Assembly: GCA_002311345.1 (NCBI GenBank)
Contig: DCAA01000023.1
Span: 59,494 to 123,493, forward strand
Direction of reading: 5' to 3'
DNA from: Planctomycetes bacterium UBA1146
Lineage (GTDB): Bacteria > Planctomycetota > UBA8108 > UBA1146
Length of the DNA: 64,000 bases
Every line of letters starts with the position of its first letter. The stretch's first letter is position 1. A program made the position numbers and the translations under genes. The notes under the pieces are model-generated. The model worked only from the letters and a program-made list of their open reading frames with translations. It was not told the origin of the DNA and ran no database searches. Positions 32,890 through 33,456 of this stretch are shown one piece after another.

Positions 32890-33456
32890 TTGGCATGGAT
32901 CGATCATCTATCCGAACAAGAGGATGACAGCGGTACGCTGAAGAGGGTCTACGCGAGTTCTCGTTCGCGTGACGGAGAAGTCGCCCAGATTCTCCAGGTG
33001 ATGTCTGCCAGGCCTGATCTTCTCGAGAAGTACATCGATTTCTATGTGCAACTGATGCACCAGTCGGTCGGGCTTTCTCGTGCGGAGAGAGAGTGGGTGG
33101 CGGTTCTCACCAGCCAGCACAATGGCTGCCATTACTGAATCGAGTCTCACCTGCGCGATCTCGAATCCCAGACCGGGAGCGAGGATCTCGTTGAAGCGGT
33201 CCGGTCGGGCCCCGTCTCCCTCGATGATCGACTGCGAGCCATCGCTGCCTTCACCGAGAAACTGACCCTCCATCCGACCTCGATGAATGCTGGTGATATC
33301 GAGCATCTAAAGAGTACGGGCCTCGATGATGCGGCCATCATGGAACTGGTGCATGTGATCGGATTCTTCAATCACATCAACCGCGTTGCCGATGCTCTGG
33401 GGGTCGATCTCGAGACCTGGATGTCTCCTGCCGATCCCCGAGACCAGAAGAATTGA
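32890..33456 (+). CDS. AhpD/CMD-family peroxidase-related protein, probable selenoprotein (in-frame TGA at 33136-33138 read as Sec)
   Basis: LSRAEREWVAVLTSQHNGCHY-TGA-IESHLRDL matches the CMD motif N-x-C-x-Y-C-x-x-x-H, with TGA at the second Cys. The same frame stays open for 105 more codons with a family-like C-terminal half (RLRAIAAFTEKLT...[16 protein letters not shown]). Confidence 0.6.
33157..33187 (+). promoter_or_regulatory. Candidate bacterial SECIS stem-loop
   Basis: GATCTCGAATCCC-AGACC-GGGAGCGAGGATC forms about 11 bp with one bulge and a small internal loop. It starts 18 nt after the TGA, and the apical loop AGACC has G at position 2. Confidence 0.35.

Follow-up and report, generated by a model that had tools for sequence, protein, structure and literature searches.

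The stretch of DNA analyzed here (the window, 64 kb in full) contains a gene for an AhpD-like redox enzyme whose reading frame is interrupted by a TGA codon at positions 33136-33138, and comparison with related sequences indicates that this codon very probably encodes selenocysteine (Sec). A sequence-only reading of the window had proposed a probable selenocysteine at this place, and the proposal is now supported by the conservation of the TGA among relatives, by purifying selection on the frame, by the standard genetic code of the window and by the presence of the same TGA in independent assemblies. Bringing more uncertainty is the RNA element that would direct Sec insertion, because the hairpin downstream of the TGA becomes credible only through comparison with relatives.

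A single reading frame with an internal TGA codon

On the forward strand, positions 32890-33456 form one reading frame with a single in-frame TGA. The N-terminal part runs for 82 codons from a TTG at 32890 and ends ...AVLTSQHNGCHY directly before the TGA, after which 105 sense codons continue in the same frame (IESHLRDLESQTGSEDLVEAV..., beginning IESHLRDLES) to the terminal TGA at 33454-33456. The sequence-only reading had described the open reading frame (ORF) in the same way, and its coordinates, the 82-codon stretch, the TGA and the 105 further codons were all recovered. It had also expected automated annotation to report a truncated gene, which is what assembly GCA_028825265.1 contains: an 82-residue gene followed by a 107-residue "hypothetical protein." The features of the gene are listed here.

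32890..33456, + strand: complete AhpD-like (TIGR01926/COG2128-type) predicted selenoprotein gene, 188 codons including one Sec codon; based on the single frame, the profile matches and PDB 2oyo
32890..32892, + strand: TTG start codon, 8 nt past the aroC stop, aligned with the starts of sister genes
33091..33093, + strand: codon of Glu68, the glutamate of the proton relay, 12 residues ahead of Cys80 and invariant in the ortholog alignment
33127..33150, + strand: redox motif C80-H-Y-U83-I-E-S-H87, aligned with 2oyo and 6k40; C80, Y82 and H87 invariant
33136..33138, + strand: in-frame TGA, read as putative selenocysteine U83; TGA in 79/80 genome and 9/11 metagenome loci

The start codon assignment follows from the sister genes. 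In the alignment, the TTG of the window is matched by ATG in loci L001, L008 and L010 and by TTG in both L006 and L007. The sister orthologs share a conserved N-terminus, M-[AS]-W-I, and in all of them 82 codons precede the TGA. Upstream, the TAG stop codon of the chorismate synthase gene aroC (32879-32881) overlaps a purine-rich TAGGGG.

Conservation of the TGA codon among relatives

Related loci were compared as a genome set, comprising the 80 closest loci with one genome per species, and a metagenome set of 11 loci; the nearest named genome among them is "Planctomycetes bacterium UBA1146," with 92% amino acid identity. The codon at C-x-[YF]-_ is TGA in 79 of the 80 genome loci and TGC in one, L077, and the identical codon is TGA in nine of the 11 metagenome loci and TGC in two distant ones (L096 and L097). 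Neither TAA nor TAG was seen at the Sec codon in the genome or metagenome loci, nor a stop at a neighboring codon. The TGA-bearing genome loci come from at least eight phyla, and the groups represented include Planctomycetota, Acidobacteriota, Armatimonadota, Chloroflexota, Acidimicrobiia, KSB1 and Zixibacteria. Cys-form relatives are found among the proteins as well, P0004 and P0007 having CxYC. The terminal stop codons of the same orthologous genes are TGA in 59, TAG in 28 and TAA in seven, i.e., 37% TAG or TAA. An ordinary nonsense codon should show a similar mixture, and the exclusive use of TGA at the internal position therefore argues that it is not one.

The sequence that follows the TGA is, on codon-level evidence, under purifying selection. 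The ratio of nonsynonymous to synonymous divergence (dN/dS) over 92 codons after the TGA, calculated between the window and divergent members of its clade, is 0.09-0.21 at a dS of 0.7-2.4, comparable to the 0.06-0.13 obtained before the TGA for divergent pairs. Invariant positions after the TGA include H87 and a C-terminal block of 17 residues. The ortholog alignment, which had been suggested as a check of the selenocysteine proposal, thus has TGA rather than Cys at this codon and gives no indication of decay downstream.

Database entries obscure this conservation. The closest database proteins are broken at the Sec codon: P0002, P0005 and P0006 begin directly after it, and the underlying DNA has TGA. 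P0001 (L004 431-994, JGI Ga0248504_1105691) is deposited with Trp at the Sec codon, and here too the DNA has TGA; evidently the contig was called under a code in which TGA is Trp (code 4), an annotation artifact that hides the putative selenoprotein. The P0001 entry also runs past its true terminal TGA (...KGKFWT).

Protein family and active site

Profile and structure searches were run on the 188-residue product with U83 entered as Cys. The family assignment of the sequence-only reading, AhpD/CMD, is upheld by two profiles with scores above their cut-offs: NCBIfam TIGR01926 (peroxid_rel) matches at 135.7 bits against a cut-off of 81.8 (E = 1.4e-39), spanning residues 10-172 on profile positions 8-173 of 178, and Pfam CMD (PF02627) matches residues 42-106 at 37.4 bits against a gathering score of 23. 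The best sequence matches among solved structures are PDB 2oyo, an uncharacterized peroxidase-related protein (E = 4.5e-25), and PDB 6k40, an AhpD (E = 8.4e-23), each aligned over about residues 16-172. The segment NRCLYCAVSH of both structures (C-x-Y-C-x-x-S-H) aligns with C80-H-Y-U83-I-E-S-H87, with Cys in 2oyo and 6k40 at the position where the window protein would have Sec. The placement of the TGA on the second redox Cys of the CxxC center, with a correctly positioned His (H87), is thereby confirmed as first described. The C-terminal motif of the window protein, in contrast, is unlike that of the two structures (FNLTNRVSSALG versus a 12-residue counterpart).

Relative to U83, the His lies at +4 and a Glu at -15, and the five residues E68, C80, Y82, U83 and H87, with the spacing E-12-C-2-Y-1-U-4-H, are all invariant in the alignment of relatives. 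Proton relays have been described for Mycobacterium tuberculosis AhpD, consisting of Glu118/Cys130/His132/Cys133/His137, and for Pseudomonas aeruginosa PA0269, consisting of Glu36/Cys48/Tyr50/Cys51/His55 (PMC3141380). The spacing of the relay residues in the window protein is identical to that of both proteins, with the presumed Sec at the second Cys position.

Two other family assignments were considered and rejected. NF041238 (AhpD_rel_CFYUT) describes "hypothetical protein 1" of the Sargasso Sea, which like the window protein is an AhpD-related CxxU selenoprotein, but the match reaches only 60.2 bits against a cut-off of 175 and covers only positions 151-340 of 357; the local C-F-Y-U-T string of that family is found in the window relatives L016-L019. 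The sestrin family PA26 (PF04636) gives 52.3 bits, but only over profile positions 17-167 of ~445, and the window protein has 188 residues. The PA26 match corresponds to the AhpD-like N-terminal domain of sestrins, and Sestrin-2 structures in the PDB match at E = 1e-5.

A candidate SECIS hairpin in the window

A stable hairpin lies within the coding sequence downstream of the TGA and is a candidate selenocysteine insertion sequence (SECIS).

33153..33191, + strand: candidate SECIS hairpin, minimum-free-energy structure, -16.8 kcal/mol
33153-33163 with 33180-33191, + strand: outer stem, with one C.U mismatch and one bulged G
33166-33169 with 33175-33178, + strand: inner (upper) stem of 4 bp, from the fold
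33170..33174, + strand: apical loop AGACC with G at loop position 2, from the fold; 31 nt after the UGA

The bacterial SECIS model that we applied (PMC13188914) specifies a loop of 3-9 nt, an upper stem of at least 4 bp, a G in the first two loop positions, a distance of 16-37 nt from the UGA and a minimum free energy of at most -7.5 kcal/mol. The window hairpin agrees with every constraint, having a loop of 5 nt, a stem of 4 bp, G at position 2 and a distance of 31 nt, with a free energy of -16.8 to -17.7 kcal/mol. The stem-loop at 33157-33187 with G at loop position 2, to which the sequence-only reading had pointed, forms the core of this larger structure and likewise fits the bacterial model. 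An alternative hairpin at 33140-33164 was rejected as the SECIS, since only ~8 nt separate its loop from the UGA and the sister sequences do not preserve it.

Hairpin architectures across the family

Of the 82 unique sequences of the family, 59 pass the SECIS model at the UGA, compared with 12% at other positions of the same genes. When all 82 downstream sequences were folded together with RNAalifold, no consensus structure was obtained. The family contains three different hairpin architectures and was therefore split into groups for folding, with alignments that cover 60 nt counted from the UGA in 78 relatives.

Group A (the Planctomycetota clade of the window): n = 12; loop varied, 30-34 nt from the UGA; 84.9% of cells paired; 2 compensatory pairs
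Group B: n = 25; loop AGGAU, 16 nt from the UGA; 86.3% of cells paired; 2 compensatory pairs
Group C: n = 41; loop CGGNNN, often GGUC closed by C-G, 24 nt from the UGA; 93.7% of cells paired; 2 compensatory pairs

All three architectures are built on the codons of the same conserved peptide, H-x-x-D-L-R-x-E. The outer helix of group A is paired in 91.7% of cells over the 12 members, yet it is nearly invariant in sequence. Its inner helix contains two pairs with synonymous compensatory changes between sisters, for example CUU/GGA versus CUG/GGC, and the sub-clade to which the window belongs has a shifted 4-bp inner stem.

These patterns allow a more ambitious evolutionary scenario, which we offer tentatively and consider rather doubtful. 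The SECIS may have been rebuilt at least twice on one conserved peptide, leaving three non-superimposable hairpins in one orthologous family, and group A, with a 39-nt hairpin mostly without the canonical loop G, may represent a distinct class of bacterial SECIS recognized by a lineage-specific SelB. If such a class exists, the family would be a natural system for studying the coevolution of SECIS and SelB.

Sec machinery and evidence weighing against Sec insertion

Several observations count against Sec insertion at this codon or against the hairpin as its signal. The SECIS model is also passed by 16% of random in-frame positions in the window genes, and at 18% of random positions in those genes a hairpin of equal stability lies at a suitable distance. 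The stability of the window hairpin does not stand out from peptide-preserving synonymous shuffles (z = -0.04) or from dinucleotide shuffles (z = 0.05 for the 81-nt stretch and z = -1.67 for the 43-nt hairpin), and synonymous differences over the hairpin codons are only modestly reduced (0.35 versus 0.48, rank 25 of 159 windows). Rfam gave no SECIS match, either for 33050-33300 at E <= 10 or for the whole window at the gathering threshold, the sole match in these searches being a spurious long noncoding RNA. Within the clade of the window the loop G is not conserved, sister loops being CUG, CCG, CAGCC and CAUCCU, and most of these sisters fail the strict SECIS model despite stable hairpins at the same place. 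A tRNA-Sec was not found in the 64-kb window by ARAGORN or Rfam, and selA, selB and selD were not found among the 50 window ORFs scanned with Pfam, of which 33 gave family matches.

Wider searches for the machinery gave a similar picture. ARAGORN detected no tRNA of any kind in the window and no tRNA or tRNA-Sec in 60 related loci, and tblastn with Escherichia coli SelA, SelB and SelD found no match in the window or in any fetched locus. Genes of the Sec machinery are usually unlinked to selenoprotein genes; since linkage is not required, their absence from 64 kb is uninformative rather than negative. As for a second selenoprotein, none of the 111 pairs of window ORFs joined by a single TGA has a redox motif or the appearance of a selenoprotein. 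Planctomycetes with complete Sec-insertion gene sets have been documented (PMC4807772), and the uncultured marine Planctomycetota lineage represented by the window is likely to be a selenocysteine user.

Because the SECIS model is permissive and the hairpin has no significance alone, its credibility rests on the comparison with relatives. The TGA and its context go overwhelmingly beyond chance, the hairpin alone only weakly so. That the window hairpin is a SECIS at a conserved position is plausible, and unproven for this particular sequence.

Alternatives to selenocysteine

Other explanations of the internal TGA would leave the enzyme truncated, miscalled or differently decoded. If the TGA were a nonsense mutation, the gene would be a pseudogene truncated at codon 83 with a downstream frame that is a recent remnant, and this is how gene callers treat it when they annotate an 82-residue gene plus a fragment. 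A recent lesion is extremely improbable, given that the same TGA is present in ~90 orthologs across many phyla, that the low downstream dN/dS was obtained at saturating dS, that the catalytic His87 and the C-terminal motif are invariant, and that neither TAA nor TAG, nor a stop at a neighboring codon, is ever seen. A sequencing or assembly error in the window that turned TGC or TGT into TGA would need only one base, and Cys forms do exist in L077, L096 and L097. Such an error can scarcely be credited, as TGA is found in all close relatives, and Ga0310122_10010649 and DTVT01000669.1 (L006/L087 and L086) match the window at every base of an 81-nt stretch that reaches from 9 nt before the TGA to 69 nt after it. 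The identity of the TGA region in independent assemblies excludes a local sequencing error, the possibility that the sequence-only reading had named as one that would undo its proposal.

The TGA might instead be read as a standard amino acid, either under a reassigned code (Trp or Gly) or by near-cognate Trp or Cys read-through without any Sec machinery, a reading to which the Trp deposited in P0001 and the failure to find Sec machinery in the 64-kb window lend some color. We nevertheless think it very unlikely. TGA ends 25 of the 33 Pfam-supported genes of the window and the genetic code is therefore standard; a CxxC center with Trp or Gly in place of the catalytic Cys would be inactive; and a hairpin downstream of the UGA that is kept family-wide with compensatory changes is to be expected from SelB-dependent decoding, not from leaky read-through. 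A split gene, in which the 82-residue and C-terminal polypeptides are translated separately and assemble into an AhpD-like fold, is suggested by relatives in which GTG or ATG directly follows the TGA and a second gene has been called there (P0002, P0005 and P0006). Family members differ, however, in the codon that follows the TGA, and in the window this codon is ATC, which is not a start; the earliest in-frame ATG, GTG or TTG comes 48 codons on, at 33283, so that the C-terminal half cannot be made separately. Initiation at 33283 would delete His87 and a conserved helix, and the active site of a split enzyme would miss its second redox residue, leaving this arrangement with a negligible probability. 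Selenocysteine at codon 83 is the reading that we adopt.

A model for decoding and catalysis

Under the selenocysteine reading, one gene would encode a 188-residue AhpD-like thiol/selenol oxidoreductase in which the UGA is decoded cotranslationally as Sec. By the standard bacterial pathway, a SelB.GTP.Sec-tRNA(Sec) complex would be tethered by the mRNA hairpin at 33153-33191 and would deliver Sec to the ribosomal A site, competing there with release factor 2. In the enzyme, Sec83 would replace the second Cys of the AhpD CxxC center, beside the Glu68/Tyr82/His87 proton relay, and catalysis would alternate between a selenenylsulfide joining Cys80 to Sec83 and the reduced selenol/thiol form. Reducing equivalents may, by analogy to AhpD, be passed to a peroxiredoxin or another oxidized thiol substrate, and the reductant could be a lipoyl protein. 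Sec insertion, binding of SelB to the hairpin and the identity of the redox partners are all inferred.

Gene neighborhood

The gene adjoining the predicted selenoprotein gene upstream is aroC, which is context and not part of the recoding device.

31793..32881, + strand: chorismate synthase gene aroC, from the ORF; a 362-residue Chorismate_synt gene occupies the equivalent place in L001 and L086

The selenoprotein gene begins 8-12 nt after aroC on the same strand in 16 group A loci (the window and 15 relatives), and the two genes are probably cotranscribed. The aroC-linked group A loci, among them L001 and L006-L012, are all labeled Planctomycetota except L010. In four Acidobacteriota loci (L036, L045, L047 and L049), the upstream gene is instead that for EPSP synthase (aroA), in some cases overlapping the start. 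The aroC and aroA couplings mean that two different genes of the shikimate pathway are tied to the same selenoprotein in two phyla. A third arrangement is found in six Acidimicrobiia-type relatives (L053, L054, L062, L064, L067 and L069), where the end of the gene for a lipoyl-domain 2-oxoacid dehydrogenase E2 acyltransferase overlaps the start of the selenoprotein gene by 1-4 nt. This adjacency fits an AhpD-like, lipoamide-linked role and, by analogy, echoes DlaT as the reductant of AhpD (PMC12028322). No ahpC or other peroxiredoxin gene and no E2 gene adjoins the selenoprotein gene in the window, and the neighborhood survey of related loci revealed no universal redox partner.

Downstream of the selenoprotein gene in the window is a gene for a conserved hypothetical protein, a 437-residue ORF at 33539-34852 (+ strand) without a Pfam match, which holds the same position in 19 loci (the window and 18 relatives). 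In its representative, the N-terminal part is hydrophobic and the C-terminal part charged and repetitive.

The exceptional label in the aroC-linked set belongs to L010 (QNYK01000107.1, "Bacillota bacterium MAG 7"; MAG, metagenome-assembled genome), which carries a group A copy 68% identical to the window protein, with aroC upstream, the hypothetical protein downstream and a hairpin of the group A type. Judged by these features, the bin label looks wrong or the contig mis-binned.

More broadly, the region 21960-42214 is syntenic with the Planctomycetota MAG L001 (JAPKAM010000003.1) at ~70% protein identity. The shared gene order runs from DAHP synthase, two M16 peptidases, an SDF transporter and EF-P through further genes to aroC and the selenoprotein gene, and continues with the hypothetical protein, an NHL-repeat protein, a VWA protein, a glycosyltransferase and an ABC transporter.

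Elsewhere in the window, five large ORFs of 277, 460, 490, 633 and 726 residues at 5782-13901 (- strand) have no Pfam family at E <= 1e-5. The ORFs at 8332-9804 and 9695-11596 overlap by ~110 nt, and a start may be mis-assigned. A 1362-residue FHA-domain protein (54997-59085, - strand) and an 868-residue protein with FHA and Ser/Thr-kinase domains (60512-63118, + strand) flank the molybdopterin gene MoeA (59072-60307); MoaC (18766-19260) and a MobA-like gene (52772-53443) occur in the window as well.

Comparison with known systems

The SECIS of E. coli fdhF, the paradigm of bacterial Sec insertion, is, as in the window, a hairpin within the coding sequence directly 3' of the UGA. Its apical loop is GGUC closed by C-G, and many of the group C loops can be drawn alike. 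The window hairpin differs from that of fdhF in being longer, with the loop AGACC 31 nt from the UGA, and shares no sequence similarity with it.

In M. tuberculosis, reducing equivalents travel along the chain NADH -> Lpd -> DlaT (lipoyl E2) -> AhpD -> AhpC -> peroxide (PMC12028322). The window protein shares the CMD/AhpD fold family and the relay pattern Glu-x11-Cys-x-[His/Tyr]-Cys-x3-His with M. tuberculosis AhpD (Rv2429), with the difference that Sec would occupy the second Cys position and that the motif falls within the N-terminal half of its 188 residues, as against residues 118-137 in AhpD.

The closest known system is the AhpD-like CxxU selenoprotein family, also called "AhpD-like 1" (COG2128/YciW) (PMC1088965, PMC2398784, PMC13188914), and the sequence-only reading was correct in recalling such proteins from marine microbes. 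The family was found in Sargasso Sea data as 27 sequences (Zhang, Fomenko & Gladyshev 2005, PMC1088965). Among the selenoprotein families of the Global Ocean Sampling data, AhpD-like proteins ranked fourth in abundance, with 299 Sec and 902 Cys sequences (Zhang & Gladyshev 2008, PMC2398784), and a 2026 review lists in its table "AhpD-like protein, TIGR01926, CxxU, one Sec" (PMC13188914). The window gene has the same domain model, a CxxU motif whose second Cys position would hold the single Sec, a stem-loop directly after the UGA, an origin in uncultured marine bacteria, and Cys homologs. Particular to the window copy are its uncultured marine Planctomycetota lineage, the long variant of the candidate SECIS with its loop at 31 nt, and the split annotation of its relatives.

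At the level of sequence, the window gene agrees with this family in the features by which membership is judged, and it adds a so far unannotated member to a known kind of selenoprotein. Conceptually nothing is new, the family having been catalogued since 2005, and the finding matters mainly for annotation: one 188-residue selenoprotein is the appropriate call, in place of an 82-residue fragment and a "hypothetical protein." Of more specialist interest are the turnover of SECIS architecture within a single family and the hints given by the lipoyl E2, aroC and aroA neighborhoods.

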